The notes: generated by a model not told the origin, from the sequence alone. Numbered from the stretch's first letter, positions 134-28,603 are shown. The stretch: DNA of 32,000 nucleotides from Edaphobacter aggregans (GCF_003945235.1 NZ_RSDW01000001.1:2250001-2282000), one strand, 5' to 3'. Made by a program: numbers and translations.

Positions 134-1189
134 TCAGCGGTAGCTTTCGACTGTTCTTCGGAAACCCTGCTCGATGGAGTGAGCCGGGTTCCAACCGAGG
201 GCTTTGGCTTTGTCGATGTTGGGGACGGTGGAGACGATGGGGCTGACGAAGTAGTTCTGATCGGTGCGTGCGCGGCGTTCGACGGTGATGCCTTCGCTGT
301 GGAATTCAGCGACGAGGCAATCTACTAGCTCTGCGATGCTGCACTCGCCGTTTGGATTGGCTACGTTGTAGGCTTCGCCATTTTTGCCGAGGAGAAGGAC
401 GGTGAAGAAGCCGAGGGTTGCGTCGGCGAGGTAACAGAAGCTGCGGCGGGCGCTGCCGTCGCTTTGGAGAACGATGGGACCGCCTTTGAGGATGTCTCGG
501 ACGAAGTCGGCGAAGACGCGGCCGTCGTCGAGGCGCATGCCGGGGCCATAGGTGTGGAAGGGGCGGACGATGCGCGTAGGGATGCCGTATTGATGAGCCC
601 AGGCGACGCACATGGTCTCGGCCATGCGCTTGCTTTCGCCGTAGCAGGAGCGGACGTCGGTGGGATCGAGGAAGCCGCCGTCGTCTTCGGCGATGGGGCC
701 GCTGTTGCTCTTGATGATGCCATAGACCTCGCCACTGCTGAAGTAGAGGAAGCCGCGGACTGGGTGCTGCCGCGCGGCTTCGAGGAGGTGCCAGATGCCG
801 AGGACGTTTGCGGAGAGGGTGCCTACGGGGTCAGTACGGTAGAAGACGGGACTGGCCTGGCTGGCGGCGTGGATGGCGAAGTCGAAGGGCTCGCGAAAGG
901 TGAGCGGGTCGGAGATATTCTGGACGAGGATTTGGAGGTTAGGGTCGTCGAGGTGATGGCGGAAGCGCTCGCGGGCGCGGTCGAGGTTGCGAACTATAGC
1001 GATTACACGGGCGGGGCGGGCGAGGTGTGAGCGGTTGAGGTAGAGGAGGGTCTCAACCATGTAGGCGGGAAGGAAGCCGGCTGCTCCGGTGATGAGGACG
1101 GTAGTGCCGGAGAACGAATCCCAGGGGAGCGATGCGCTGACGATGGAGGCTAGGTCTTCTTCGACGATTGCATTGTTTAAAGAAGGCAT
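134..1189 (-). CDS. NAD-dependent epimerase/dehydratase, UDP-glucuronate-decarboxylase-like extended SDR
   Basis: ORF 134..1489 trimmed to the internal ATG at 1187-1189 (MPSLNNAIVEE...), 5 nt after the stop of the preceding gene (1195-1197). The 100 codons upstream are R/P-rich and overlap that gene. Motifs: ITGAAGFLPAY (Rossmann), YGESKRMAE (YxxxK), RIVRPFHTYGPGMRLDDGRVFADF resembling UXS/dTDP-glucose-dehydratase-type extended SDRs. Confidence 0.85.
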   Translation of the reverse strand: MPSLNNAIVEEDLASIVSASLPWDSFSGTTVLITGAAGFLPAYMVETLLYLNRSHLARPARVIAIVRNLDRARERFRHHLDDPNLQILVQNISDPLTFREPFDFAIHAASQASPVFYRTDPVGTLSANVLGIWHLLEAARQHPVRGFLYFSSGEVYGIIKSNSGPIAEDDGGFLDPTDVRSCYGESKRMAETMCVAWAHQYGIPTRIVRPFHTYGPGMRLDDGRVFADFVRDILKGGPIVLQSDGSARRSFCYLADATLGFFTVLLLGKNGEAYNVANPNGECSIAELVDCLVAEFHSEGITVERRARTDQNYFVSPIVSTVPNIDKAKALGWNPAHSIEQGFRRTVESYR

Positions 1190-1194
1190 ATTCG

Positions 1195-2169
1195 CTAGGG
1201 GAGCAGGCCGAGGAAACGCACCATCTCGAGATGGCGCTCGGTGTGGAGGAAGAAGAAGTTGGTCTCGACGGTGGTCTCGGTCATCTCGGCGAAGGAGTGC
1301 AGGGTGTTGCCGTCGAGCGCGAAGCACTGGTAGCCGATATCGCGGAAGAGGGCGATGATATCGTTGGGGTGGTAGTCGAAGCGGGCGGCCCACTTGCGGA
1401 GCATTTCGGTGAAGACGATGGGCTTGGCGCGCTCGAGGGTTTTGACGGCTCCGCGGAAGACGCGGAGCTCGCCACCCTCTACGTCGCACTTGATGAAATC
1501 GGGAGAGATGCCGGTGCGGTCGACGAAGGCGTCGAGGGTTTCTACAGGGCAGGTGAGGGTTTGGGTGGGGCCGAACTCTGCGCCGAGAGGGGCTCCAGAT
1601 GCGGCTCCGGAGACGGTGGGGTCGAAGTAGAAGGTGGCTTCGTAAGCGCGATCGGAGAGGCCCTGATTGAGGGCGGTGACGTTGCTGACGCCGTTGAGGG
1701 TGAGGTTGCGCTGCAGCTCGCCGTAGGTTGCGGCGACGGGCTCGAAGGCGATGAGTTTTGAATCGGGGAAGCGCTGGCCGATGGCGATGCTGTAGATGCC
1801 TACGTTGGCGCCGACGTCGAAGATGGTGCTACAGGTCTTGGCGAGACGAAGGACTGCGCCGAGCTCTTCGGATTCGTAGTTGCGGAAGTTGAGGCTGGCG
1901 ATTGCTACGTGGCGCTGATCGTTGGGCATGCACCTGAGCTTGACCCTGGGATCGCGCAGGTTGAAGATGACGCCCTGATCGGTGATTTCGATGGAGGCGA
2001 CGTTGGTGCCGGCGAGGAAGGCGGAGTATTCGAAGAGGCGCTGATGAATCTTCCAGATCTCGCGGCTGTAGGTTGCCTTGTTGAAGGCTCCGGCTTCGAA
2101 TGCGGAACGCAGCGCGGCCAGCTCCAGATGTTGCTCGGATGACAGGGCCGGATCGGGGGATGAATTCAT
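1195..2169 (-). CDS. FkbM-family SAM-dependent methyltransferase
   Basis: 324-aa ORF with ATG at 2167-2169 and GAGGA upstream. The core FDVGANVGIYSIAIGQRFPDSKLIAFEP is typical of the Methyltransf_21/FkbM family, which is common in glycan loci. Confidence 0.85.
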   Translation of the reverse strand: MNSSPDPALSSEQHLELAALRSAFEAGAFNKATYSREIWKIHQRLFEYSAFLAGTNVASIEITDQGVIFNLRDPRVKLRCMPNDQRHVAIASLNFRNYESEELGAVLRLAKTCSTIFDVGANVGIYSIAIGQRFPDSKLIAFEPVAATYGELQRNLTLNGVSNVTALNQGLSDRAYEATFYFDPTVSGAASGAPLGAEFGPTQTLTCPVETLDAFVDRTGISPDFIKCDVEGGELRVFRGAVKTLERAKPIVFTEMLRKWAARFDYHPNDIIALFRDIGYQCFALDGNTLHSFAEMTETTVETNFFFLHTERHLEMVRFLGLLP

Positions 2170-2259
2170 CTTGTGAGATTTCCTCGGATAGTTATACCAC
2201 TCAAAATAGCAGATTGGGGTTGCAGCCGGGCTACTGCAGGATGGGGGGGCTGGGTGGGC

Positions 2260-4038
2260 TTAGGGTTTGGTGAGATAGAGGAAGACCTTGGCAGCGGTGG
2301 CCGGGTCGAGATCGGGGGTCATGAGGTGGAGAGGGTTGGACTCCATGCTGCCGGAGGCCGTGACGCGGCTGCTGATTTTGGGGAAGTAGGTTTGCTCGGG
2401 ATCGATCTTGACGAGGAATGCGGCTGGTCCGGGGGCATTGAAGGCTTCGAGGAAGGCGGGGCATTGTTCGAAGCCGGGACGGAGTTCCTGCAAGGGGATG
2501 CCGTAGGCCTCGAAGAGCTTTGACCAGATGGGCATGCCAAGGCCGGTGTTGATGTCGCAGCCTACGTAACGGCCACCGAAGTAGTTTTTCTGCGTCATGC
2601 GGATGGAGGCGTAACCGTCGTCGTCGTAGAGGAAGATCTTGAGGTTGAGTTGATTGACGGAGACGGTGCCTAGCTCCTGGAGGTTCTGGGTGAAGCCTCC
2701 GTCGCCTTCGGTAAGGATGGTGCGGCGGGGACTTGCGGCGATGGCGGCTCCGATGGCTCCGCTGAGGCCGTAGCCCATGGAGGCGAGGCCTTTGTTGTTG
2801 ACGATGAGCTGACCGGCCTTCTGGTCGAACGCCTGCATCATGGTGGTGTAGGCGCTGCCGCTGGAACAGGGGATTACTACGTCGGTTTCGGTGGCGAGGG
2901 CGGAGAGCTTCTCGACGAAGACATATGGCGAGAGGAAGCCTGGGCCGGTGTTGTTGACGGGCTCGACGAGGGGAAGAGCGGCTTTGACGTCGCGGCAGAA
3001 GCTGAGCCATTCGGTGTGTGAGCCGAGGTCGGCTTTGGTGATGGCGCGGAGGACTTCGTTGGCGTCTCCGCAGATGGGAGTAGCGACTTTGGGGTGGCCC
3101 TTGGAGAGTTCGAAGGGGTCGCAGTCTACCTGGATGATTTCGCCAACCGGGATGAACTGCTGCCAGTTGAAGCCGCTCTGCTGAAGGCTGAGGCGGGTGC
3201 CGAGAGCGAGGAGGAGATCGGACTGCTGGAGGAGGATATTGGAGTAACGCTGGCCCCATGTGTTGGGGCGGCCGAAGTAGAGCGGGTGGTCGACGGGGAT
3301 GCGGTCCATGGCGTTCCAAGTGAACGTGAGGGGAACGCCGAGGTCGGTGAGAGCGCGGCTGGCGAGGAGGGCGTTGGTGGTGGCGCGGTCGATGCCGGCT
3401 CCGAGGAGGATGACGGGGCGCTGGGCGGATTTGAGGCGTGCGGCGATGCTGGCGATGGTTTCGGCGGAGATGGGCGCGAAGGTTGGGGTGAAGGCTGGGA
3501 CGGGGGTACTTAGATCGGTGGGGTCTACCTGGACGCCCTGGATGTCGAGCGGAATCTCCACAAAGACCGGGGCATGGCGGCCGTTAAGACCGGAACGCGT
3601 TATCTGCGCAAAAGCAGAGCGGTCGACGACGGCTTCCAGCAATACGGAACGTTCCGTTACTGGGCCCGCGATAGCAACTCCATTGATCTCCTGAATCCCT
3701 CGCTGGCGGACTTTTCCTCGCGAGAGGTCCGCCAACTTTACCTGGCCGCCGATGACGAGCAACTCGCGACTCTCAAGAAAGGCACCTGCTAGTGCGGTCA
3801 CAATGTTGGTGAGACCAGGGCCGGCGGTCACAAGTGCAAAGGCCTTGGGACCGAGATGCACTTCGTTGAAGTATTCAGCTGCGATGCCGGCCGCAACCTC
3901 ATGCACTACTGGAATGCAAGTCAGCTTGTGGCTCAAGCTTTCGAGCAGATGCATGATGTTGCCACCTGCAACAAAGAAGCAGTGAGTGTAGCCAAGCTCG
4001 ACGAGCCACTCGGCAAGCAAATCGCTGTATTTTTTCAT
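2260..4038 (-). CDS. Thiamine-diphosphate-dependent enzyme, acetolactate-synthase-large-subunit-like (possible YerE-type sugar C-branching enzyme)
   Basis: 592-aa three-domain ORF. N-terminal PYR domain (CFFVAGGNIMHL; VHEVAAGIAAEY with the catalytic Glu). C-terminal ThDP motif GDGGFTQNLQELGTVSVNQLNLKIFLYDDDGY. ATG 4036-4038 overlaps the stop of the upstream gene (ATGA). The family call is firm; the YerE-like role is inferred from context. Confidence 0.85.
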   Translation of the reverse strand: MKKYSDLLAEWLVELGYTHCFFVAGGNIMHLLESLSHKLTCIPVVHEVAAGIAAEYFNEVHLGPKAFALVTAGPGLTNIVTALAGAFLESRELLVIGGQVKLADLSRGKVRQRGIQEINGVAIAGPVTERSVLLEAVVDRSAFAQITRSGLNGRHAPVFVEIPLDIQGVQVDPTDLSTPVPAFTPTFAPISAETIASIAARLKSAQRPVILLGAGIDRATTNALLASRALTDLGVPLTFTWNAMDRIPVDHPLYFGRPNTWGQRYSNILLQQSDLLLALGTRLSLQQSGFNWQQFIPVGEIIQVDCDPFELSKGHPKVATPICGDANEVLRAITKADLGSHTEWLSFCRDVKAALPLVEPVNNTGPGFLSPYVFVEKLSALATETDVVIPCSSGSAYTTMMQAFDQKAGQLIVNNKGLASMGYGLSGAIGAAIAASPRRTILTEGDGGFTQNLQELGTVSVNQLNLKIFLYDDDGYASIRMTQKNYFGGRYVGCDINTGLGMPIWSKLFEAYGIPLQELRPGFEQCPAFLEAFNAPGPAAFLVKIDPEQTYFPKISSRVTASGSMESNPLHLMTPDLDPATAAKVFLYLTKP

Positions 4039-5135
4039 GAAGGGTAACTTTCCAAGACAGTCTTTATGGCGCCTTGGATGCGTAGCATCGACTCCGGCGA
4101 TTTAGGGATCTTCTTAACAATGACCTTGCCGGACGGTTCGACGAGGATCAGCACATAGCTGTCCTGTCTGTGCTTCTTGTCGGATTCGAAGCGCTCCATG
4201 ACATCTTTCAGCTGCAATTCAGCAAGCTGGCTTGAAAGACTTGGCACAACCCGGAAGATGGTGGCCAAATGATCTTCGAGTTCGCGAACTGCGGGTGCTC
4301 CAGCGTATGGATCGGAGCCGTCTTCAGGGCTCTGGCGACCGAACGCGAGAGCGCACAACATCCCCAGGCCCACGGCGATTCCATGCGAGATGCCATAGTT
4401 CGAGGCGCCTTCGATAGCGTGGCCAAAGGTATGCCCGAAGTTAAGGAGTAGACGCTGATTCTGATCGAATTCGTCGATCTCAATGAACCACTTTTTTGCC
4501 CGCAGACTGTGGGCGATAAGCATGGCGAGTGCGGACGTTTCCATCCCCGGGTGCGGGTTGCAGGCGAGATAGCTGCGGAATGACTCCGGGCTATGGCAGA
4601 AGCAGATCTTTGCCGCTTCGATGATGCCACTGGCATGCTGATCTAATGGCAGAGTGCGTGCGAACTTAGGGTCGACGAGGACTCGCAATGGAGGATGAAA
4701 GGTGCCGACGAGATTCTTGTAGCGCCCGACATTGATGGAGGACTTGCCTCCGATGCACGAGTCAACCATTCCGAGGATCGTTGTGGGAATATAAATCCAC
4801 TGCACACCGCGCATGTAGATGGAAGCAGCGAAGGCGGTGAGGTCCTGGATCACGCCGCCGCCGATTGCAACGAATTGAGTTTGCCGGTTGGCTCCAGAGC
4901 GACGGATCTGTTCGATCAGCCCCGGCGCTGAGTCGAGCGATTTAACGGATTCAGACGCATCGTAGTAAATGACCGCACGCGAAGATTCGATCCACGAAGG
5001 AAGAGCGCCTCGGAAGAAGCTGTCTGCGATTATGACAGCCTGCTGATGTTCGTCTATCTGGCGGTCGAAGGCTCCGGGCTCGATATACACAGAATAGCTT
5101 CCTGTGGAAGCGGAGATTTCAAACGATTCGAACAT
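4035..5135 (-). CDS. 3-dehydroquinate synthase family protein (sugar-phosphate-cyclase-like)
   Basis: 366-aa ORF with ATG 5133-5135. Signature set GGGVIQDLTAFAA, PTTILGMVDSCIGGKSSIN, KNLVGTFHPP, NFGHTFGHAIE, HGIAVGLGM, matching the nucleotide/metal-binding motifs of the DHQS superfamily. The start overlaps the upstream SDR gene by 17 nt. Confidence 0.85.
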   Translation of the reverse strand: MFESFEISASTGSYSVYIEPGAFDRQIDEHQQAVIIADSFFRGALPSWIESSRAVIYYDASESVKSLDSAPGLIEQIRRSGANRQTQFVAIGGGVIQDLTAFAASIYMRGVQWIYIPTTILGMVDSCIGGKSSINVGRYKNLVGTFHPPLRVLVDPKFARTLPLDQHASGIIEAAKICFCHSPESFRSYLACNPHPGMETSALAMLIAHSLRAKKWFIEIDEFDQNQRLLLNFGHTFGHAIEGASNYGISHGIAVGLGMLCALAFGRQSPEDGSDPYAGAPAVRELEDHLATIFRVVPSLSSQLAELQLKDVMERFESDKKHRQDSYVLILVEPSGKVIVKKIPKSPESMLRIQGAIKTVLESYPS

Positions 5136-5832
5136 GACTGAACCCCAAGTCGGCAGCGATGAACTGGCCTGTAATACCGGTATTTTCGGGCGAACAGAGA
5201 TAACAGACGAGCGAGGCGACCTCCTGCAAGCTGACGAGGCGATTGTATGCCGTAGCGGCGGAGAGTCGGTCGATCTGTTCCGCGCTAAGATTCTTGCGAG
5301 TCATTGGCGATTCGATTGCGCCGGGTAGCACCGCGTTGATGAGATGACCGTCCTTGGCAAGGTCTGCGGATGCGGAGAGCACAAGACCTTGCAGCGCCGC
5401 TTTGCTCATGCAGTAGGAAAGCTTTGATTGACGCGCGAGGTTCTGCCAGATGGAACTGATAATGCAAAGACGTGAAGCAGTTGCAAGGAAGCCACCTTGA
5501 AGGAGCGCTTGCAAGGTAACGAGGATATAAGTGCAGTTGGCCTCGTATATTTGTCGATGAACTGCCAGGTCAAGATTGTAGACACTGTCGTTCGCGTTGG
5601 TGCCCTGCGCCCAGCAGATGCTGGTGTAAGCGGAAGACGGTGCAATTTGTGAATAGGCAAAGTCCGCACTCAACGGATCGAGAGCAAAATATTCAACTGC
5701 AGGTAGCGGAACTTCAGGTAGCTTGCGTGCAACAGCCGTAACCTTCCAGCCGCGCTGAAGTGCTAACCGAACCACTCCGCCACCGATAACTCCGCTGGCG
5801 CCGAATACTAGGATATGCTCTACCGACTCCAT
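5119..5832 (-). CDS. Classical short-chain dehydrogenase/reductase
   Basis: ORF 5119..5931 trimmed to ATG 5830-5832 ([19 protein letters not shown]...), which overlaps the TAA of the upstream gene by 1 nt (TAATG). GASGVIG glycine motif and SYCMSKAAL (YxxxK). Confidence 0.8.
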   Translation of the reverse strand: MESVEHILVFGASGVIGGGVVRLALQRGWKVTAVARKLPEVPLPAVEYFALDPLSADFAYSQIAPSSAYTSICWAQGTNANDSVYNLDLAVHRQIYEANCTYILVTLQALLQGGFLATASRLCIISSIWQNLARQSKLSYCMSKAALQGLVLSASADLAKDGHLINAVLPGAIESPMTRKNLSAEQIDRLSAATAYNRLVSLQEVASLVCYLCSPENTGITGQFIAADLGFSHVRIV

Positions 5833-6629
5833 TAGCGATTGAGAACCGCCCAGCGTTTCTCGAGCATGTCGATCCGCTTGGCGTCTTCCTGTTGAATCTG
5901 GCTGTAGTAGTCCCGTTTGTTCAGCAACCAAAGCATCTCGAAGTGAACTGCGTTCAGCAGACCTTCACTAATGTGGTTTTCTCTTACGGCGTTCGCGTCG
6001 AAGATGACCTTGCGTGTCTCAAAGCGTGTTAGGTGCACGTCGAGCATCTCGCGAAGTACGGGAATAGAGTCGCTGGAGACGCCCCCCCCGACAACGAGAT
6101 CCAGACCGCGCGACTTGCAGGCGGCTGCCGTCTTCAGAACGTAGTCGGTGACCTCTTTGCCATTAATGGCGTCTCGCCCGAGGCCAGCAGAGAGCGAGAA
6201 GTCGACGCGGCCGAAGACGATACCAGCCAGTTCAGGTGCCTTCTTGGTCGCATCGGCCATAGCCTCAAGTTGACTGTAGGCAGAGATCGTCTCAAGGTTG
6301 AAAAGAAAGTCGGTCTCCTCTTGCTCCTCTTTCGAGTAGACCTTGTCCACTGCATCGGCGAATTTAGTGAGAGCGTAGGTGCTTTCGATCATTGGCGCGA
6401 TGATGTAATCGACGCCGAACTGCTTACTTTCGATGAGGTCGCGCATCGCCTCGCAGCCACCGATCTTGAGCCCGAACTTCAGGCTGGCCTTGCGACAGAT
6501 CTCAACGAGCCGAAGCAGTTCATCGACGCGGGTGCCTTCGGCCTCAAACTCCGCTTTGACGGCTACATAACCAAATTCGTCTCTGCCCTTTTTGAGGAGG
6601 TCCAGCATCTTGCGTTCTTTGATGTTCAT
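5832..6629 (-). CDS. HpcH/HpaI-type aldolase / citrate-lyase-beta-like TIM-barrel protein
   Basis: 265-aa ORF with ATG 6627-6629 preceded by [21 protein letters not shown] and [14 protein letters not shown]...[16 protein letters not shown] resemble the conserved strands of the HpcH/HpaI, CitE and PEP-utilising (beta/alpha)8 family. The assignment rests on remembered motifs only. Confidence 0.6.
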
Positions 6630-6735: not shown

Positions 6736-8136
6736 TTAGAGAACAATCAGGTCACCCCTGACTATCGTGTGGAAAGAATCGATAATATAGTCGATCATGT
6801 TTTCGGTTAGACCAGGGTAAACACCGATCCAGAACACATTGTTCATCACATAATCCGTATTGGGTAACTCCCCAATCTTGCGATACTTCGAATTCAGATA
6901 AGCCGGCTGACGCAAAAGGTTGCCACCGAACAGTAGCCGTGTTCCGATCTTCCGTTGATCCAAGGCTCGCACGACACGGTCACGTTTCAGTCCCCCTTCG
7001 GGCTTCACCGCAATGGGAAAGCCAAACCAACTGGGATCAGAGCCCGGCGTGGCCTGAGGCAAGGAAAAGAACTCCTCCAGATCTGCAAGGCCATCATAAA
7101 GACGTTTGAAGTTCGCCCTTCGCGCCGCGATGAAGCCCGACAACTTCCTCAACTGAGACACACCAACCGCCGCCTGCATGTCGGAAAGCTTCAGGTTGTA
7201 GCCAATGTGCGAATAGATGTACTTGTGATCGTACCCGCATGGTAGTTCACCGAGTTGCCACTCGAATCGCTTGCCGCAGGTGTTGTCCCTTCCCGGAGCG
7301 CACCAGCAGTCGCGGCCCCAGTCTCGGAACGATTCTATCAGTTTGGTCAACGCAGGCTTCTGTGTCATCACAGCACCACCCTCGCCCATCGTAATGTGGT
7401 GCGCAGGATAAAAGCTCGCAGTAGAGATATCGCCAAACGTTCCCACGCCCTGACCTTTGTAGGTAGCGCCCACCGCATCGCAGCAGTCTTCCACCAGCCA
7501 GAGATCGTGCCTCTTGCAGAAAGCCATCACTGCGTCAAGGTCAAAGGGATTGCCCAGCGTGTGCGCAATCATCACTGCGCGGGTTTGATCAGACACAGCT
7601 GCCTCAAGCTGGGAGTAGTCAATGTCATAAGTATCCAGCTGAACGTCAACGAACACAGGGACTAAGTTGTTCTGAATCGCCGGATTGATAGTCGTAGGAA
7701 AACCCGCCGCAACAGTAATAACCTCATCACCAGGCCGGAGCGCGCGGTCACCCAGACTAGGAGATGTGAGCGCAGAGAGCGCCACAAGATTCGCCGACGA
7801 ACCTGAGTTGACCAGACGAGCATCGCGGACACCCATCGCTCGTGCGAACTGGCGTTCAAATTGCTCCGCGAAACGGCCCGTTGTTAACCAGAAGTCTAGC
7901 GAGGCATCCACAACGTACTGGATGTCTTCGGCATCGAATACCTTGCCGGAGACAGGAACTGCAGACACGCCTGGGGTGAACTTGCGGGTTGGAAACGCTA
8001 CATCGTGGTACTTGGTCACCAGGTCGCGAATCTGATCGCGCAAAACCTCAGCCTGTAGCTCCCGCTCGGCGATCGCACCACCTTCTTCGCTCAGGCTAAG
8101 GCTGCCCGCTCGATTTTCAGCGATCGATTCCATCAT
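6736..8136 (-). CDS. rfbH: CDP-6-deoxy-L-threo-D-glycero-4-hexulose-3-dehydrase (E1; RfbH/DdhC)
   Basis: 466-aa DegT/DnrJ/EryC1-fold ORF (ATGATG at 8131-8136, overlapping the rfbG TAA by 1 nt). E1-specific features: [12 protein letters not shown], with His where aminotransferases carry the PLP lysine, and the Cys pattern EDCC-x57-CWC-x7-C. I counted the latter by hand, and it matches the C-x57-C-x1-C-x7-C [2Fe-2S] motif described for E1. Confidence 0.93.
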
Positions 8137-9257
8137 TAGCTCCTATTCGAAATCGGCAGGTCATATTTGGAGAGCCGTTGATAGGCAGCAATCTGATCGA
8201 GGGTGATCTGCTGCATGTCACTTCCGGCCTGCCACTGCTTGAACCATTCTACGATGAACTGCAGCGCGCCGGAGAGGGCAAGCGCTGGTCGCCAACCTAG
8301 CAGATTATGCGCGCGCGCGCAGTCTAGTTTCAGATAGGTGGCCTCATGGGGATGAACACCCTCATCAATAGCCCAGGACGCATCAGGCGACCACTGCTTC
8401 GCCAACTCACGCACAATCCATTCTACCGGCCGTGCGTCCTCCTCATCTGGGCCAAAGTTCCAGGCAGATGTAAAGCTTGCGTCGTGCGCAAGAAGCCGCT
8501 CCGCAAGCTGAATATAGCCACGGACAGGCTCCAGTACGTGCTGCCACGGGCGGATCGCATGAGGATTGCGAATCGCAACCTGTTCGCCAGCGATGAAACC
8601 GCGCATCAGGTCGGGAATTAACCGATCCACTGCCCAGTCTCCCCCGCCGATCACGTTGCCCGCGCGAGCGGTGGCGACAGCAACTCCGTGGACGCCAAGC
8701 TTGTCCGGCGGAAAGAACGAATCGCGATAAGCCGCACTCACCAATTCAGCGCACGCCTTGCTGTTGCTATATGGATCATGCCCACCCAGCCGGTCATTCT
8801 CACGATAACCCCACTGCCACTCGCGATTCTGGTAACACTTGTCCGTCGTTATCAGAACTGCCGCCTTCACCGATGCTGTATGCCGAATGCTGTCGAGCAC
8901 ATTCACTGTGCCCATCACATTCGTCGCATACGTCAATACCGGCTCAGCATACGAGCGTCGCACCAACGACTGCGCGGCAAGATGAAAAACGACATCAGGC
9001 GCGAACTCCTGCATGGCTGCTCGCAGGCGTGGCAACTCACAAATGTCAGCCTCGATATGGTGTACGCACTCACTAATACGAGCGACCTCAAAGAGATTAG
9101 GGTCGCTCGGGGGTGCCAGCGAATACCCACACACAGTGGCTCCCATCTGCGTCAGCCACAGCGCCATCCAGCTGCCCTTGAACCCAGTATGCCCTGTAAG
9201 AAATACCCGGCGTCCTCTCCAGGGAGAATCAAGCCCGAGGCTCACCACTTCCTCCAT
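8136..9257 (-). CDS. rfbG: CDP-glucose 4,6-dehydratase
   Basis: ORF 8136..9395 trimmed to ATG 9255-9257 ([35 protein letters not shown]...), the typical N-terminus of this family. The extra 46 codons lie inside rfb[10 protein letters not shown] (YxxxK). 16-nt overlap with the end of rfbF. Confidence 0.9.
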
Positions 9258-10012
9258 GGCGCCGCACCACTTTGCCACAGCTCTTCCAGTTGCGTCTTGT
9301 CGCGAAGAGTATCCATCGGCTGCCAAAAGCCTCTGTGTGGATACGCCTTCAGGTTCCCTTCTTCCGCCAGCCGTTCGAGCGGCTCTCTTTCCCATAGGGT
9401 CTGGTCGCCCTTGATATAGTCAATCACCTTGGACGAAAGAACAAAGAACCCTCCATTGACCGAGACTCCGTCGCCAACCGGCTTCTCACGAAATTCAGTA
9501 ACTTGGTCACCATCGATCAATAGTGAACCCCAACGGCCGCTGGGCTGCACTGCACATATGGTCGCTAACTTTCCATGGAGCCTGTGAAACTCGATGGATT
9601 TCACCACATCGATATCCGCAAGCCCGTCGCCGTACGTAAGACAGAAAGTATCTTCCCCAGCTAGATATTTTGCCACGCGTTTTAGCCGGCCACCGGTCTG
9701 TGTCGTATCGCCTGTGTCAACAAGCGTTACGCGCCAGGGTTCCGTCGCGCTGTCATGGACTTCCATACGGTTCTCTTCCATATGGAACGTGACATCCGCT
9801 GTATGCAGGAAGTAGTTGGCGAAAAATTCTTTGATGACATAGCCCTTATAACCCAGACATATTACAAAGTCATTGATACCAAAATGAGAATAGATCTTGA
9901 GGATGTGCCACAAGATGGGCTTCCCGCCGATCTCAACCATCGGCTTTGGGCGAACTGAGGTCTCTTCACTGATCCGAGTGCCCAATCCACCTGCGAGAAT
10001 GACAGCTTTCAT
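9242..10012 (-). CDS. rfbF: Glucose-1-phosphate cytidylyltransferase
   Basis: 256-aa ORF with ATG 10010-10012. MKAVILAGGLGTRISEETSVRPKPMVEIGGKPILWHILKIYSHFG is a near-canonical RfbF/DdhA N-terminus. Confidence 0.93.
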   Translation of the reverse strand: MKAVILAGGLGTRISEETSVRPKPMVEIGGKPILWHILKIYSHFGINDFVICLGYKGYVIKEFFANYFLHTADVTFHMEENRMEVHDSATEPWRVTLVDTGDTTQTGGRLKRVAKYLAGEDTFCLTYGDGLADIDVVKSIEFHRLHGKLATICAVQPSGRWGSLLIDGDQVTEFREKPVGDGVSVNGGFFVLSSKVIDYIKGDQTLWEREPLERLAEEGNLKAYPHRGFWQPMDTLRDKTQLEELWQSGAAPWRKW

Positions 10013-12781: not shown

Positions 12782-15541
12782 TCAAAAAAGCGTGTTGGTT
12801 GCTGCGATCGCGATTCCAAACTGGCCAACAATCTGCGCGATATCTACAAGTAGTCGCATTCCCTTGCCCTTATCCAGGTTCATCGGGATCACAACCGTAT
12901 CCCCAGGATAAAGCCGCAGAGAGTCGAATCCATTGCCACGCAGCAGCGACGAGCTGTATTGCCTGCTGACCACCGAGCCTCCAGCGCGAATAACGTAGGC
13001 ACGGTTCGCGTCCGCATCGCGGTTCGCTCCACCGGCCAATCGCACATAATCGCCTACGCGGCGGCGCGGATCGTATAAAAACGTATTCTGATTGTAGACC
13101 GCACCATCTACACTTACAGTCGAAGGCACCCGGGGCACGATAAACCGGTCTCCATCTTCCAGCGGAAGATCAGGCAACGCGGACACATCGCGGCTATCCG
13201 GCGGCATTTCCAGAACGATGCGCCCCGTGGCCCGTGCCTGGCGCAAGCTATTGACGATGTTTTGGTTCTGCTGAGCGGCAGCGGACGCCGCAGCAGTATC
13301 CTGAGCGCTGATCGAACGATTCGCGTTGCCCGCTGCATTCGCGCTGGCCTGCAGCGAGATCTGGTCGACATACTCATTCAGCCGCTGCTGCTGCACGCGG
13401 CGCGTCGACTCGCGCGTAAACTCCGATCCATAGAGATAAGCCTCAGGCGTCAAACCTCCAGCTCGTTGCACCAACTGCCGTAGCGTCTCACCTGGCTTCA
13501 CGCTGTAAACGCCAGATCCGACAAACTCTCCCTCCAGCCGCACCAGCCGCGTTTGCTCCGCCTGGGGCACGTGAATGTCGGCCTTTGAAAAGATCGTCAC
13601 CACATCACCCGGCTCCAACTCCAGGTTTTGCGAAACGTCCCCTTGCATCACGACCTTACCCAGATTGAACGGTAGCAGTGTTGTGGTTAGATCCTCTTTA
13701 CCCTGTCGCTCGATGACTGCGTAGCTCCAATTGATATCCGGTTCACTCAATTTCACATCAAATCGAGCCCGAAATTGCGTCGAGGAAGCGCCCACGCTCG
13801 CCTCAGCCGTACTTACACGATTCGAACCAGCGGTATTCTGGGGCAACTGCAGCAGGTTCTGAGTTGTTGCAGTAGGGTTGGTTGTTCCCTGCGCCGGCAC
13901 CGTTCCCTGCGACTGCGACTGCGCCTGCGCCGACGGTGTATATCGATCATTCATTCCGCTTGCAGATGTCTGGGACTCATTTGGTGTCCCGCAGTCCGGT
14001 CCACCGTCGGTCGTCGGACCGTCCGTCATTTGACTTGAACTACCCTCAGAATTCCCGAAAGGCAGGCCAAACAGATTTGGATTTCTTGTCGACGAATATC
14101 TCCAGTTAGGATTATCCCCTTCCTCTCCCACTGGAATTCCGTACCGGAGGCTGGGAATGCCAAAGGGCGTCCTTGGTGGGCACGTTGGAATAAAGGTCAG
14201 CCCAGGCTGGCCCAGTTGTGCGCGCTTCAGCCAGTAGTCGCGGGTAATCAGCGCATCCTTATCGGGAATCAGGTCCTTGACGCGCATTCCCGGCTTCCAC
14301 GTGTAGCGTCCAGGATTCGCCACGTTTCCTCGCAACGTAACCGCATCCTTATACTGGTTGGGAATCGCAATCATTGACAGAATGTCGCCATCCTGCAGGA
14401 CCGTCGCCTTACCCTTGGCATCGATCCCAAGCTCAAGAAAACTGCGACCGCGCCCCTCGCTTACACGCTCCAGCCGAATCTTCTCGCTCGCGGCCACATT
14501 CGTCAAGCCGCCTGCCAGTTCAATCATCTCCCCTACGGTCGTGCTGTCGGCAGACTTCAACTCATAGATTGCAGGCTCGTTCACGCTGCCGGTCAACGCC
14601 ACCTGTGGCCCCACAGATGGAATAAAGATGACGTCGCCGGGAAGCAGTTGCACGTCCTTCGACTTGTCTCCGTGAAGCAGCAAATCGTACAAATCGAAAT
14701 CGACGATGACCTGGCCGCTCCGCTTCAGTTGGATGTGGCGCACACTACCCTGGGGCGTCGGGCCGCCGGTCACAAAGAGCGCATTCACCAGCGTGCTCAA
14801 CGAGCTGATCGTATAGTTTCCCGGACGCCGCGCCTGTCCCACCACAAATACCTGGATCGAACGCAACTGCCCCATGTTCACGTTCAGGTCGAAATTTCGG
14901 AAGACTCTACTTATCTGCGTCTTCAGACTGTCCTGCAACTGCATGAATTTCAGGCCTGCCACATGCAACGTGCCTACCTGCGGGATGTAGACGTTGCCCA
15001 TCCGGTCCACCATGAAGCGCCCGTTAAGCGTGACCTGCCCCCATAACTGCACCTGCAACTCGTCACCCGGACCAACTACATAATCGGGGGTCACCGGCAC
15101 CATGTTCAGTGGCGCAAAGGTTGAAGGCGGATTGCGGAAGAGCTTCGCGCCATAGATCGGCAGCATCTTCCCTGTCGCATTGGCGACCATGTTCTGAAAT
15201 TCAGTCGGCGAATCCAGGGGAAGTTTGGGCTCAACAGTGGTCAGATTCTGACCCTGCTGCTGCTGATTGCCCGTCTGCGCGTTCGTATTGTTCTGATTCG
15301 TCTGATCAGATTGCAGCACGATCCCCTGAGAGGGAGTAACCGGGATATTCCCTTGCAATGGAATACGTGTCTGATCTACGCTCTGGCAACCAGAATCGGT
15401 CGGATTACAGGCCTGCTGTTGCTGGCCACCAGTTCCACCAAGCACCTGAGATATCTGTGCCGATACCCTGCTCGCTCCGAGCACGGTAACCAAAACAACG
15501 CATCCAACCTGAACTACTCTGAGCGAGCCACCAAACTGCAT
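12782..15541 (-). CDS. Outer-membrane polysaccharide export protein (OPX/Wza-like, multi-SLBB), unusually large
   Basis: The ORF-track start at 15559 is TTG. The first ATG is 15539-15541 (MQFGGSLRVVQVGCVVLVTVLGASRVSAQ, signal-peptide-like). The PDYVVGPGDELQVQLWGQ Poly_export motif is followed by repeated SLBB-like PGD/DGD turns (LLPGDVIFIP, LQDGDILSM, LEPGDVVTIF, LEDGDRFIVP, LYPGDTVVIP). Confidence 0.85.
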   Translation of the reverse strand: MQFGGSLRVVQVGCVVLVTVLGASRVSAQISQVLGGTGGQQQQACNPTDSGCQSVDQTRIPLQGNIPVTPSQGIVLQSDQTNQNNTNAQTGNQQQQGQNLTTVEPKLPLDSPTEFQNMVANATGKMLPIYGAKLFRNPPSTFAPLNMVPVTPDYVVGPGDELQVQLWGQVTLNGRFMVDRMGNVYIPQVGTLHVAGLKFMQLQDSLKTQISRVFRNFDLNVNMGQLRSIQVFVVGQARRPGNYTISSLSTLVNALFVTGGPTPQGSVRHIQLKRSGQVIVDFDLYDLLLHGDKSKDVQLLPGDVIFIPSVGPQVALTGSVNEPAIYELKSADSTTVGEMIELAGGLTNVAASEKIRLERVSEGRGRSFLELGIDAKGKATVLQDGDILSMIAIPNQYKDAVTLRGNVANPGRYTWKPGMRVKDLIPDKDALITRDYWLKRAQLGQPGLTFIPTCPPRTPFGIPSLRYGIPVGEEGDNPNWRYSSTRNPNLFGLPFGNSEGSSSQMTDGPTTDGGPDCGTPNESQTSASGMNDRYTPSAQAQSQSQGTVPAQGTTNPTATTQNLLQLPQNTAGSNRVSTAEASVGASSTQFRARFDVKLSEPDINWSYAVIERQGKEDLTTTLLPFNLGKVVMQGDVSQNLELEPGDVVTIFSKADIHVPQAEQTRLVRLEGEFVGSGVYSVKPGETLRQLVQRAGGLTPEAYLYGSEFTRESTRRVQQQRLNEYVDQISLQASANAAGNANRSISAQDTAAASAAAQQNQNIVNSLRQARATGRIVLEMPPDSRDVSALPDLPLEDGDRFIVPRVPSTVSVDGAVYNQNTFLYDPRRRVGDYVRLAGGANRDADANRAYVIRAGGSVVSRQYSSSLLRGNGFDSLRLYPGDTVVIPMNLDKGKGMRLLVDIAQIVGQFGIAIAATNTLF
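13907..13930. repeat. Hexanucleotide tandem repeat (ctgcga x2, ctgcgc x2) inside the OPX low-complexity insert
   Basis: Read directly as ctgcgactgcgactgcgcctgcgc. It encodes AQAQSQSQ on the minus strand and stays in frame. Confidence 0.7.
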
Positions 15542-15573
15542 CTTCCGTAATCCTCGCAAAACCTCTAAACTTC

Positions 15574-15760: not shown

Positions 15761-17275
15761 CTACCTCTGCTGACATTCCACCACCTGTGCCACCCGCAGC
15801 ATCGTCGCCTCATCAAAGTGCTTGCCGATGAGTTGCACTCCGATCGGCAATCCACTCTTCGTCTCCCCGCAGGGCACGCTTATCCCGCAAACCCCTGCCA
15901 GACTCGCTGCCACCGAATAGATGTCCTCGAGATACATCTGCAGCGGATCGTCCGTCTTCTCTCCAAGTTTGAAGGCCGGAGTCGGCGTCACCGGAGCCAC
16001 CAGCACATCGACCTCATTGAAAGCCGTAAGAAAGTCCCGGGTCAGCAGAGTCCGTACCTGTTGAGCCTTCTTGTAATAAGCATCGTAGTAACCTGCGCTC
16101 AGAGAATACGTTCCCAGTAGGATCCGTCGCTTCACCTCGGCCCCAAATCCGGCATCCCGCGTCTTGCGAAACATCTCCGACAAGGTCTTCGCCTCGGCAT
16201 CCCGCAATCCGAACCTCACGCCATCGAAGCGCGACAGGTTGGACGAGGCCTCTGCCGTCGCAATCACGTAGTAGGTCGGAATCGCGTATTTCGTGTGGGG
16301 TAAACTTACCGGCTTTACCACGCATTTTGCCATCTTCAAACCATCTAAAACCGTCTCGATGGCACCACGAATCTCGGGATCCAGCCCCTCCCCGAAGTAC
16401 TCCTCCGGAACTCCAATCCGTAGCCCCTCGACTGGCTTGCTGAGCGCAGCCACATAGTCATCCACAGGACGATCGGATGAGGTCGCGTCCATATGATCTT
16501 GTCCTGCAATGACTTGCAGCACGGTCGCTGCATCTTTCACATTCCTGGTAAATGGTCCCACGCGATCCAGAGAGGACGCAAACGCAATCAACCCATACCG
16601 ACTCACACGCCCATACGTCGGAAGCACACCAACCACGCCACAAAAAGCCGCTGGCTGCCGAATCGACCCCCCCGTATCCGTACCAAGCGTCGCCACCGCA
16701 AAATTTGCCGCCACCGCCGCAGCCGACCCGCCGCTCGATCCACCTGGAACTCGATCCAAAGCCTTTGGATTCAACACCGGGCCGTACGCCGAGTTCTCGT
16801 TCGAACTGCCCATCGCAAATTCATCACAGTTCAATTTCCCAAGTAAAACCGCACCCGCAGCCTCAAGCTTCGTCACCACGGTAGCGTCATAAGGTGGCCG
16901 ATACCCTTTTAGAATCAATGACCCAGCAGTGGCCGGAGCGCCCTGCATCGTCAATACATCCTTGATACCTACGGGCACTCCGGCCAAAGTCGGCAGCACC
17001 TCACCCTTCGCGGCCATCGCATCGATCTTTCCCGCCTGAATCAAGGCCCGTTCACGGCTCAAAGCCAGAAAACTATTGATTTTGCTATCCCCGACCTCAA
17101 TACGGCCATAATGCAGTTCGGCTAACGCTGTGGCAGTTGTCTCGCCCGAAACAACTGCGGACCGCGTCTCCTCAATCGCTAAATTCTCTAATTCCATCGC
17201 CTTTACGCTCACGCACCTTGCCTCAAAATTCCCGTCATCGCCGCCCTTGCAGCCTTCCGGTGTTATCAAGCTCAT
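15761..17275 (-). CDS. gatA: Glu-tRNA(Gln)/Asp-tRNA(Asn) amidotransferase subunit A
   Basis: 504-aa ORF with the amidase signature (GGSSGGSAAAVAA, GTDTGGSIRQPAAFCG). ATG 17273-17275 overlaps the gatC stop (ATGA). An alternative ATG at 17195-17197 (MELENLAIEETR...) would give a more typical ~478-aa protein. Confidence 0.93.
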   Translation of the reverse strand: MSLITPEGCKGGDDGNFEARCVSVKAMELENLAIEETRSAVVSGETTATALAELHYGRIEVGDSKINSFLALSRERALIQAGKIDAMAAKGEVLPTLAGVPVGIKDVLTMQGAPATAGSLILKGYRPPYDATVVTKLEAAGAVLLGKLNCDEFAMGSSNENSAYGPVLNPKALDRVPGGSSGGSAAAVAANFAVATLGTDTGGSIRQPAAFCGVVGVLPTYGRVSRYGLIAFASSLDRVGPFTRNVKDAATVLQVIAGQDHMDATSSDRPVDDYVAALSKPVEGLRIGVPEEYFGEGLDPEIRGAIETVLDGLKMAKCVVKPVSLPHTKYAIPTYYVIATAEASSNLSRFDGVRFGLRDAEAKTLSEMFRKTRDAGFGAEVKRRILLGTYSLSAGYYDAYYKKAQQVRTLLTRDFLTAFNEVDVLVAPVTPTPAFKLGEKTDDPLQMYLEDIYSVAASLAGVCGISVPCGETKSGLPIGVQLIGKHFDEATMLRVAQVVECQQR

Positions 17276-28338: not shown

Positions 28339-28603
28339 AGGATCGATCTCCATTCAGTAGGCTTTTTTTGTTGCGTTGTTCTTCAGCTTCTCGGATAGGC
28401 GAAGGACAAAAGTGCCGCACTTTGATGGACTTGGCTCACGACAGACGACAGGTCGGCCTTGAGCGACAAGGGCTTCTGCGGCTTCAATTGACCAAAAGGG
28501 GAAGTGACGGGATCCCAGGAAGTGCTTGGCCCGCGTTCGCTGCGAACATACGCGCCCCCGTGCTAACCTGTCAAACCACATGGCCTTCCACGGAGGTGCC
28601 GCT

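Follow-up and report, generated by a model that had tools for sequence, protein, structure and literature searches.

A candidate side-chain arm of a caryophyllose-type branched deoxysugar pathway, with a dehydroquinate synthase-like enzyme, in Edaphobacter aggregans

In the window of genomic DNA from Edaphobacter aggregans analyzed here (32,000 nucleotides), genes for an aldolase, an SDR, and a dehydroquinate synthase (DHQS)-like protein adjoin the gene for a YerE-like thiamine diphosphate (ThDP) enzyme. On balance, this triad and the ThDP enzyme probably form the side-chain arm of a pathway to an acyl-branched deoxysugar of the caryophyllose type, an assignment that we rate as somewhat better than even and for which a stepwise mechanism is proposed below. 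The YerE-like enzyme is the key to the function of the triad. Clusters of this kind are already known (Steitz et al. 2022); here one is found in an Acidobacteriaceae genome, and for two of its enzymes the literature searched assigns no role. Nine genes on the minus strand, running from 10012 to 134, make up the locus:

9242..10012, minus strand: glucose-1-phosphate cytidylyltransferase, RfbF (TIGR02623, 456 bits, cut-off 300)
8136..9257 (start refined), minus strand: CDP-glucose 4,6-dehydratase, RfbG (TIGR02622, 497 bits, cut-off 278)
6736..8136, minus strand: RfbH/DdhC (E1), CDP-6-deoxy-4-keto-hexose 3-dehydrase (NF011936 RfbH, 744 bits, cut-off 423)
5832..6629, minus strand: HpcH/HpaI-like class II aldolase, 265 aa (Pfam HpcH_HpaI, 30.7 bits, cut-off 25)
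5119..5832, minus strand: classical SDR, 237 aa (adh_short_C2, 81 bits)
4035..5135, minus strand: DHQS-like (AroB-related) NAD+/metal enzyme, 366 aa (DHQ_synthase, 124 bits, and DHQS_C, 80 bits)
2260..4038, minus strand: YerE-like thiamine-diphosphate enzyme, predicted carboligase, 592 aa (three TPP-enzyme domains)
1195..2169, minus strand: FkbM-family methyltransferase (Methyltransf_21, 68 bits; TIGR01444, 101 bits), probably a tailoring step
134..1189 (start refined to 1189), minus strand: extended-SDR NAD-dependent reductase in the YerF position (Pfam Epimerase, 141 bits)

The three overlapping minus-strand reading frames at 4035-6629 described in a first-pass annotation of this DNA are confirmed by direct reading of the frames and by HMM matches, with the start of the SDR, whose longest reading frame spans 5119-5931, placed at the ATG at 5832 by alignment of homologues. 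Read directly at the junctions, the stop codon of the HpcH-like gene and the start codon of the SDR gene share 1 nt (TAATG), the SDR gene has its stop codon 17 nt within the DHQS-like gene, and the DHQS-like stop codon overlaps the ThDP start codon in the ATGA at 4038-4035, so that overlapping stop and start codons run across the middle four genes. As a unit, the triad was thus correctly drawn for its three genes but lacked the translationally coupled YerE-like gene (2260-4038). Because the HMM matches are strong, homologues number in the thousands, and the gene order is repeated in dozens of genomes, the arrangement lies far beyond chance. An E3 (DdhD-type) reductase, needed by RfbH, was not found within the 32,000-nt window.

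The best solved relative of the ThDP enzyme is 8rph (JanthE, a YerE-like enzyme; 3.4e-85), and the protein also matches PpYerE (5ahk). Its TPP domains, its closest similarity to YerE-like enzymes, and the RfbF/G/H genes upstream of it identify a YerE-like carboligase, for which carboligation of a 2-keto acid onto a keto sugar is predicted. In clusters for acyl-branched sugars, an aldolase provides a 4-hydroxy-2-keto acid, which the ThDP enzyme decarboxylates and adds to C4 of CDP-4-keto-3,6-dideoxyglucose, the resulting 1'-ketone then being reduced by a reductase (Steitz et al. 2022, PMC9306805). This scheme, drawn for yersiniose (YerE/YerF), erwiniose (ErwE/F/I/J), and the cluster of R. palustris CGA009, has the aldolase, the YerE-like ThDP enzyme, the CDP-4-keto-deoxyhexose, and the reductase in common with the window, and the CGA009 cluster includes a methyltransferase as well. 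The aldolase function is variable among these systems, erwiniose, whose ErwE rejects pyruvate, relying on an aldolase-dehydrogenase pair of the BphI/BphJ type and yersiniose needing no aldolase. Unlike the window, the scheme as set out in the main text includes neither a DHQS-like enzyme nor an additional SDR.

A caryophyllose-type cluster is expected to contain genes for an aldolase, a ThDP enzyme, a reductase, and the supply of a CDP-3,6-dideoxy-4-ketohexose, and all of these occur in a single locus of the window. Going by product names, the caryophyllose sub-cluster of the LOS locus of Mycobacterium marinum (MMAR_2329-2336) has an identical gene set, with a DHQS-family protein (MMAR_2329), a protein of the aldolase/citrate-lyase family (MMAR_2331), a ThDP enzyme (MMAR_2332), and RfbF, RfbH, and a CDP-glucose 4,6-dehydratase (2334-2336). 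Caryophyllose is lost in knock-outs of 2331, 2332, and 2333. In the searchable literature no role is assigned to MMAR_2329 or MMAR_2330, nor to the DHQS-like or SDR gene of such clusters. The two loci also differ, as M. marinum belongs to the Actinomycetota and carries the sugar on a glycolipid, whereas in the acidobacteriotal window the carrier is probably a polysaccharide of the Wzx/Wzy type, with Wza and Wzz, and the FkbM methyltransferase is an addition to the mycobacterial sub-cluster. In caryophyllose the side chain, a hydroxylated 2',6'-dideoxy C6 chain, is linear and attached to C4. Since it has been made synthetically from an acid of digitoxose configuration (2,6-dideoxy-ribo), it is both 2'-deoxy and 6'-deoxy, as expected of a chain derived from a 3,7-dideoxy-2-keto acid.

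For the 366-aa protein, membership in the DHQS/sugar phosphate cyclase superfamily is indicated by matches to PF01761 (124 bits) and PF24621 (80 bits). The four motifs quoted in the first-pass annotation are all present (GGGVIQD at 92, DSCIGGK at 125, GHTFGHAIE at 234, and HGIAVGLGM at 251). Its best sequence matches in the PDB are all DHQS (about 1e-40), with DOIS, ValA, and DDGS ranking behind, and by Foldseek its fold superimposes on many DHQS structures with a TM of about 0.8; by sequence and fold together, the top PDB matches listed are all DHQS, DOIS, or other sugar phosphate cyclases. With Fe-ADH_2 scoring 23 bits, under its cut-off of 28, and a glycerol-1-phosphate (G1P) dehydrogenase model reaching an E-value of 0.002, the protein has a DHQS fold rather than that of the iron-ADH/GldA type. 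Compared with E. coli AroB and all clade members, it keeps the metal ligands E173, H235, and H251 and likewise R109, D125, K131, N141, K176, K214, R228, N232, H239, and K320/321, so that the inspection of substrate-pocket residues proposed earlier finds every AroB pocket motif residue retained. The roles of these residues are those in the A. nidulans DHQS structures; in DHQS, the residues at the positions of K214, R228, and N232 hold the carboxylate/hemiketal end of DAHP. The complete retention of the pocket argues for a DAHP-like 2-ulosonate phosphate as substrate.

The protein is nevertheless set apart from AroB, with which it shares fold, NAD+/metal motifs, pocket residues, and a likely course of transient oxidation and then phosphate elimination, by its constant pairing with an SDR, its location in glycan loci, the acyclic outcome proposed below, and a score of 246.5 bits against the aroB equivalog TIGR01357, under the cut-off of 305. 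It also carries a clade signature of its own (Q97, C127, DEFD, and HG[IVL], in the contexts GGGxxQD, VDSC, DEFD, and HG[IVL]AV), which occurs in all 150 nearest representatives and is lacking in E. coli AroB. The best-scoring curated model is TIGR04425, [quoted passage not shown]; the window protein reaches 277 bits, short of the cut-off of 400, and is not a member. That model is a hypothetical equivalog only.

An AF2 model (pLDDT 88) of the 265-aa protein matches SbnG, HpcH, HpaI, YfaU, and CitE-like lyases/CLYBL in Foldseek with probability 1.0, at a TM of 0.5-0.6 and 11-17% identity, and together with the Pfam match (PF03328) this bears out the proposed aldolase fold, a TIM barrel of the HpcH/HpaI/citrate-lyase type. 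Residues E113 and D143 align, at a low hhalign probability, with the Mg ligands E153 and D179 of E. coli YfaU. The aligned stretch does not reach the position of the catalytic Arg, whose place may be taken by K55. The protein belongs to a divergent, very conserved subfamily, the top 120 hits among its homologues being at least 83% identical. The 237-aa protein has the features of a classical SDR (GASGVIG at 11, SSIW at 126 with S126/S127, and Y140-x3-K144), its nearest solved structures being FabG-type ketoreductases.

How consistently these genes travel together was assessed in 80 genome loci collected with the DHQS-like protein as seed. Every one of the 79 loci with room has an SDR gene directly upstream of the DHQS-like gene. 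Of 74 related loci, 71 contain the ThDP gene (immediately adjacent in 59), which in most loci is followed by a homologue of the reductase in the YerF position. RfbF is present in 40 of the 54 fully covered loci, and CDP-glucose/RfbH genes are usually close by. The HpcH-like gene occurs in 66/77 related loci and was not found within 10 kb in the other 11. In a sister branch, TIGR04425 proper (429 bits for a representative), the clade signature is shared and an SDR is again upstream in nearly all loci having upstream sequence, but the module differs, with a 2-hydroxyacid dehydrogenase, GFO/MocA, and SIS proteins and without the ThDP enzyme. Some sister-branch loci combine the SDR-DHQS-like pair with a canonical HpcH aldolase and a cytidylyltransferase of the CMP-ulosonate type, which fits a product that has remained a 2-ulosonic acid instead of becoming a carbocycle.

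In the mechanism that we propose, the aldolase would join pyruvate to a C4 aldehyde bearing a phosphate, D-erythrose 4-phosphate being the simplest candidate, to give a 3-deoxyheptulosonate 7-phosphate, either DAHP or the epimer of DAHP at C4. The DHQS-like enzyme would carry out the opening half of DHQS catalysis, with transient oxidation by NAD+ and then beta-elimination of phosphate, and would free an acyclic or pyranose 7-deoxy keto product without carbocycle closure, a step that would make the terminal methyl of the side chain. The SDR, in favor of which its FabG ketoreductase type is counted, would reduce the leftover ketone at C6 or C5 to yield a 3,7-dideoxyheptulosonate. Decarboxylative transfer of this donor onto the CDP-4-keto sugar by the ThDP enzyme, and subsequent reduction of the 1'-keto group by the extended SDR, would give a 1,3,4,5-tetrahydroxyhexyl branch with a methyl end, the side chain of caryophyllose; the FkbM protein would methylate this branch further. 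As a mechanistic analogy only, nucleotide-sugar 4,6-dehydratases also achieve terminal deoxygenation through transient NAD+ oxidation, beta-elimination, and a separate ketoreduction, although they have an unrelated SDR fold, eliminate water, and act on a nucleotide sugar. All first-shell DHQS residues are kept, and nothing in the sequence of the DHQS-like protein indicates that cyclization has been lost. The enol-pyranose intermediate of DHQS cyclizes spontaneously in solution, and a non-cyclizing outcome would therefore need a mechanistic departure, for example delivery of hydride to C7 or rapid ketonization.

The order of these steps could be different. Deoxygenation might come first, the DHQS-like enzyme and the SDR generating, from a sugar phosphate, a free C4 aldehyde deoxygenated at C4, with which the aldolase then condenses pyruvate to the same end product. 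We regard this as rather unlikely. Erythrose 4-phosphate, by chemical reasoning, is unable to form the pyranose bound by DHQS-family enzymes, no member of that family acting on a C4 sugar is known to us, and the retention of K214, R228, and N232, with the roles given above, points away from such a substrate. In its favor, the SDR-DHQS-like pair is the invariant core of these loci and is found in the 11 lacking the HpcH-like gene, and for the M. marinum and R. palustris aldolases Steitz et al. draw pyruvate with a free, not a phosphorylated, aldehyde (“28”; PMC9306805). Alternatively, the ThDP enzyme might transfer a phosphorylated side chain whose terminus the DHQS-like enzyme and SDR deoxygenate on the CDP-sugar. 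Such late action seems quite improbable: the gene order (aldolase, SDR, DHQS-like, ThDP) leaves the order of reactions unfixed, and late tailoring of nucleotide sugars is common, but the DAHP-type pocket with its carboxylate binders suits a free ulosonate, and the sister branch has the pair at work in loci without a ThDP enzyme.

The first-pass annotation favored a cyclitol or carbasugar, and a true carbocycle, a quinate- or dehydroquinate-like cyclitol, could be made by aldolase, DHQS-like enzyme, and SDR as a separate component or substituent of the polysaccharide, with pyruvate as the substrate of the ThDP enzyme, as it is in yersiniose formation. The DHQS fold with its full catalytic set, the spontaneous cyclization of the intermediate noted above, and the word “cyclizing” in the name of the nearest NCBIfam model, though a hypothetical equivalog, speak for it, and Burkholderia caryophylli is a producer of caryophyllose as well as of caryose, which is a carbocyclic sugar. 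We nonetheless hold it to be distinctly unlikely. Translational coupling and co-inheritance tie the four genes together, some sister-branch loci include the cytidylyltransferase of the CMP-ulosonate type, and a C6 side chain requires a methyl-terminated C7 2-keto acid that no other gene of the cluster would supply. In M. marinum, moreover, the DHQS-family gene stands beside an aldolase gene needed for caryophyllose, yet no carbocycle is among the LOS sugars described in the literature covered (caryophyllose, an N-acylated 4-amino sugar, methyl-rhamnose, and glucose). The gene set of that locus, compared by product names, is also why the present locus is read as a caryophyllose-type cluster and not as a cyclitol pathway. 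What stands of the earlier interpretation is its family assignments and its link of the triad to the CDP-sugar, and its second option, a 3-deoxy-ulosonate decorating that sugar, comes close to the explanation preferred here. A further reading, in which a second housekeeping AroB is encoded and the three genes adjoin by accident, has in its favor that databases label the DHQS-like protein 3-dehydroquinate synthase; given the sub-threshold aroB score, the signature foreign to E. coli AroB in all of the nearest representatives, and a neighborhood kept in 80 genomes, it is highly improbable.

The association extends beyond close relatives. In seven distant metagenome loci, the SDR, DHQS-like, ThDP, and HpcH-like genes are kept together with their order shuffled. 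The earlier statement that DHQS-like genes are not standard in glycan loci fails for loci of the present type, in which this DHQS-like subfamily recurs across at least four phyla.

The three open reading frames that the first-pass annotation had singled out as an aldolase, a short-chain dehydrogenase (SDR) and a dehydroquinate synthase (DHQS)-like protein lie where it had placed them, within a longer minus-strand run of CDP-sugar and carboligase genes. The genes of this region are as follows.

9242-10012, minus strand: RfbF, glucose-1-phosphate cytidylyltransferase, above its equivalog cut-off
8136-9257, minus strand: RfbG, CDP-glucose 4,6-dehydratase, above its equivalog cut-off
6736-8136, minus strand: RfbH/DdhC, above its equivalog cut-off
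5832-6629, minus strand: HpcH-like aldolase, 265 aa; weak but significant match to HpcH_HpaI (30.7 bits, cut-off 25)
5119-5832, minus strand: classical SDR, 237 aa, starting at the ATG at 5832
4035-5135, minus strand: DHQS-like protein, 366 aa, matching two DHQS domains
2260-4038, minus strand: ThDP enzyme, 592 aa; best solved relative 8rph (3.4e-85)
1195-2169, 3' of the ThDP gene: FkbM methyltransferase
134-1189, 3' of the ThDP gene: extended-SDR reductase, YerF-like
Elsewhere in the window: Wza, Wzz, a polytopic membrane protein, glycosyltransferases, an initiating sugar transferase and rmlABCD

The locus as a whole is a surface-polysaccharide locus. Its junctions, read directly, show that the three genes and the ThDP gene are tightly coupled: the stop codon of the aldolase gene shares one base with the start codon of the SDR gene (TAATG), the 3' end of the SDR gene lies 17 nt within the DHQS-like gene, and the stop codon of the latter overlaps the start of the ThDP gene (ATGA). 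The longest reading frame of the SDR extends to 5931, and the ATG at 5832 is the start in all homologues. Treating the aldolase, SDR and DHQS-like genes as a unit had overlooked the adjoining ThDP gene, which is the decisive neighbor.

The solved relative of the ThDP enzyme, 8rph, is the YerE-like carboligase JanthE. A unifying scheme for acyl-branched sugars, proposed and partly demonstrated by Steitz et al. 2022 (PMC9306805), has an aldolase provide a 4-hydroxy-2-keto acid, which a YerE-like ThDP enzyme (ErwE, MMAR_2332 or MyGE) decarboxylates and adds onto CDP-4-keto-3,6-dideoxyglucose, the branch then being completed by a YerF-like reductase. The clusters named there are that for caryophyllose in Mycobacterium marinum and one in R. 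palustris CGA009, the latter also with a methyltransferase, and M. marinum mutants in 2331, 2332 and 2333 lose caryophyllose addition (PMC9306805), those in 2331 and 2332 accumulating LOS-II*. The M. marinum sub-cluster further includes a GT2 glycosyltransferase (MMAR_2333), RfbH (MMAR_2335) and CDP-glucose 4,6-dehydratase (MMAR_2336), according to RefSeq names (PMC12395582 supplement); its likeness to the window is one of such product names, not of alignment. By this comparison the window carries a further cluster of this type, in an Acidobacteriaceae genome, and the product of the locus is probably a caryophyllose-like long-branched sugar. The link to the CDP-sugar drawn in the first-pass annotation was correct. 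Caryophyllose and other long-branched sugars are surface determinants, and caryophyllose-bearing lipooligosaccharide (LOS) of M. marinum inhibits TNF-alpha secretion by macrophages (PMC9306805).

A homologue search seeded with an actinobacterial locus (L056) returned no mycobacterial protein among its best 120 matches, and the plasmid collection contained no homologue. No role for a DHQS-family or SDR gene was found in the full-text literature covered, and full-text queries pairing dehydroquinate synthase with LOS, O-antigen or YerE gave nothing relevant. YerE-like clusters reportedly number more than 200, a count attributed to Krug et al. in 2024. RfbH, the E1 component, requires an E3 reductase; none of the DdhD/AscD type (an iron-sulfur flavoprotein) occurs among the scanned open reading frames of window positions 1-32000 or, by product name, among MMAR_2329 and MMAR_2331-2336 of M. 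marinum.

The family assignments of the first-pass annotation held, both for the DHQS-like protein and for the aldolase with its HpcH_HpaI match. Among the PDB sequence matches listed for the DHQS-like protein, 3-dehydroquinate synthases come top at about 1e-40, with 2-deoxy-scyllo-inosose synthase (2e-29), the ValA cyclase (2e-26) and 5tpr (9e-20) lower down, and the predicted structure (pLDDT 87) gives TM values of about 0.8 on DHQS structures. The four motifs quoted earlier, GGGVIQD, DSCIGGK, GHTFGHAIE and HGIAVGLGM, lie at residues 92, 125, 234 and 251. The opposing assignment, to iron-alcohol or GldA-type glycerol-phosphate dehydrogenases, had been set in advance as a test; it is ruled against by sub-threshold scores for both models and by the DHQS fold. 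A housekeeping AroB, in keeping with the name 3-dehydroquinate synthase that databases give to the relatives of this protein, is rejected on a score of 246 bits with the aroB equivalog model (cut-off 305), on synteny and on a signature peculiar to its clade. In the alignment with E. coli AroB the pocket motif residues are all kept (R109, D125, K131, N141, E173, K176, K214, R228, N232, H235, H239, H251 and K320/321); their roles in binding metal, phosphate and carboxylate are presumably those seen in the A. nidulans DHQS structures. Specific to the clade are GGGVIQD, where AroB has G at the Q position, VDSC, where AroB has S at the C, DEFD in place of DERE, and HGIAV in place of HGE. The signature GGGxxQD / VDSC / DEFD / HG[I/V/L]AV is present in all 150 of the best representatives of 50%-identity clusters (P0241-P0390), which reach down to 36% identity. 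By sequence comparison the clade is deep and separate from AroB. The nearest curated model, TIGR04425, excludes the window protein (277 bits, cut-off 400), and TIGR04425 proper is one branch within the clade.

The model of the 265-aa protein (pLDDT 88) matches SbnG, HpcH, HpaI, YfaU, RipC, CLYBL and malyl-CoA lyases in Foldseek with probability 1.0 and TM 0.5-0.6, at an identity of just 11-17%, and bears out the aldolase fold claimed for it. In a low-probability profile alignment with E. coli YfaU, E113 and D143 fall at the two metal-ligand positions, and the catalytic arginine position falls beyond the part that aligned. The subfamily is unusually conserved, with at least 83% identity across the best 120 matches.

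A genome scan seeded by the DHQS-like profile, with neighbors counted by tblastn using window proteins as queries, provided 80 loci. Represented among them are Acidobacteriaceae, with Terriglobus roseus DSM 18391 and Granulicella rosea DSM 18704 in their number, as well as Caulobacteraceae, Sphingomonadales, Hyphomicrobiales, Methylomonas, Pseudoduganella and one Solirubrobacterales MAG. The SDR gene lies immediately upstream of the DHQS-like gene in 79 of the 79 loci with room for it; a ThDP gene is found in 71 of 74 (adjoining in 59), an HpcH-like gene in 66 of 77, and RfbF in 40 of the 54 fully covered loci. Across the window and its 80 relatives, the DHQS-like enzyme and the SDR thus constantly accompany the aldolase and the ThDP enzyme. 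The closest MAG locus (L001) is collinear with the window, at 87.5% nucleotide identity, over the stretch that opens with RfbF and closes with the ThDP gene. In more distant metagenome loci the SDR, DHQS-like, ThDP and HpcH-like genes are grouped in shuffled order, and their staying together despite rearrangement is good evidence for one shared pathway.

Some loci depart from this pattern. Several carry only the SDR, DHQS-like and ThDP genes, with no HpcH-like or Rfb gene within 10 kb (L024, L028, L031, L032, L041-L043 and L050 in Acidobacteriaceae; L063 and L079 in Sphingomonadaceae), and in the two sphingomonad loci L063 and L079 a luciferase-like monooxygenase lies upstream and the ThDP gene is absent. 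Either the partners are elsewhere in these genomes or the SDR-DHQS-like pair has a further use. In four proteobacterial loci (L071, L075, L078 and L080) the three genes are kept alongside a ThDP enzyme of a different subtype, 34-35% identical to that of the window and accompanied by its own reductase, which suggests that ThDP partners have been exchanged.

How these enzymes might together supply the side chain can be approached from the sugar itself. The C12 sugar caryophyllose bears a hydroxylated C6 chain at its tertiary C4, and the published scheme does not state the origin of the terminal methyl of this chain (PMC9306805). Chemical synthesis of the chain starts from a digitoxose-configured (2,6-dideoxy-ribo) C6 acid, so the chain is 2'-deoxy with a methyl end; with the logic of the ThDP reaction, the donor must then be a C7 2-keto acid that is both 3-deoxy and 7-deoxy. 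In the route proposed here, pyruvate would supply the 3-deoxy position through a class II aldol reaction on D-erythrose 4-phosphate, giving a 3-deoxyheptulosonate 7-phosphate. Given the D-ribo side chain, this would be the C4 epimer of DAHP, the two distal centers being erythro as in erythrose 4-phosphate. The DHQS-like enzyme, with its DAHP-binding type of pocket, would carry out NAD+-dependent oxidation and then beta-elimination of phosphate without ring closure, and the SDR would reduce the leftover ketone, at C6 if the enol ketonizes or at C5 if C7 takes the hydride back in the manner of sugar 4,6-dehydratases. The YerF-like reductase would reduce the 1'-ketone, and FkbM would methylate the product.

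This route would explain the three genes, the invariable pairing of SDR and DHQS-like enzyme, and the translational coupling to the ThDP enzyme. Its weak points are several. No feature of the sequence demonstrates a block on ring closure, and the enol-pyranose intermediate of DHQS cyclizes spontaneously in solution. No HpcH-like gene is nearby in 11 of 77 loci, where no DAHP synthase was found as a substitute and the upstream genes are unrelated (GT87, histidine kinase, TPR protein, PhzF, luciferase-like protein). The published scheme draws the aldolase substrate as a free aldehyde (PMC9306805). On balance, deoxygenation of the aldol product in this manner by the DHQS-like enzyme and the SDR seems about as likely as not, and the combined statement, a caryophyllose-type cluster with this side-chain route, is favored by a small degree. 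Between the cyclitol and the ulosonate put forward in the first-pass annotation, the ulosonate came near the mark and the carbocycle is unlikely.

The branch formed by TIGR04425 proper offers a view of the same pair in another setting. Metagenome loci of this type (L084:4727-13011, also L086, L097 and L112-L114) combine the SDR-DHQS-like pair with a 2-hydroxyacid dehydrogenase, a GFO/MocA oxidoreductase and a SIS isomerase, and none of these module loci has a ThDP enzyme. L084 and L086 add two DUF386 genes, a CTP_transf_3 cytidylyltransferase, a "cyclase", a canonical HpcH aldolase and a GT2. The canonical aldolase (132 bits) also occurs in a few other TIGR04425-type loci, and the cytidylyltransferase is of the CMP-ulosonate kind. 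The module resembles a route to a CMP-activated deoxy-ulosonic acid. An HpcH aldolase alongside a CMP-type cytidylyltransferase fits a DHQS-like product that remains a 2-ulosonic acid, which supports the proposal independently. More tentatively still, with the balance just against it, the whole clade (window protein, MMAR_2329, TIGR04425 and relatives) may consist of non-cyclizing ulosonate-phosphate phospho-lyases that, with their obligatory SDR partner, deoxygenate aldolase-made 3-deoxy-2-ulosonate phosphates at the terminal carbon.

The widely conserved SDR-DHQS-like pair opens the origin of the caryophyllose side chain to direct test. If the proposed route is right, a large uncharacterized clade mislabeled as 3-dehydroquinate synthase would gain a function, and a superfamily known for carbocycles would gain an acyclic reaction outcome. 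The route would also make chiral polyhydroxy 2-keto acids available to ThDP biocatalysis, and it predicts sugars like caryophyllose in, among others, Acidobacteriaceae, Caulobacteraceae and Methylomonas. Extended to the whole clade, the activity would be a new reaction outcome among the sugar-phosphate cyclases and a general route to 3,omega-dideoxy-ulosonic acids, serving as ThDP donors for long-branched sugars or, CMP-activated, as glycan units. If the side-chain route is wrong, the locus is still one more rightly recognized case of a cluster type already known.

Variation is also apparent along the locus itself. In the ThDP, FkbM and reductase genes (134-4038), GC3 is 0.76-0.83 and the GC skew of the coding strand about -0.25 to -0.28; in the aldolase, SDR and DHQS-like genes, GC3 is 0.57-0.70 and the skew about 0. 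Homology to L001 breaks off precisely at the 3' end of the ThDP gene; L001 there has neither FkbM nor a reductase of the type at 134-1189. The shift in composition and this end of homology suggest that the operon tail is a recombined mosaic. Elsewhere in the window, the Wza-type exporter (12782-15559) is unusually long at 925 aa; it contains several SLBB domains and long low-complexity stretches rich in Q, N, T and S. The exporter gene is separated from the glycosyltransferase genes by an amidase gene (15761-17275), and a neprosin-family peptidase gene (27067-28353) lies past the rml genes.
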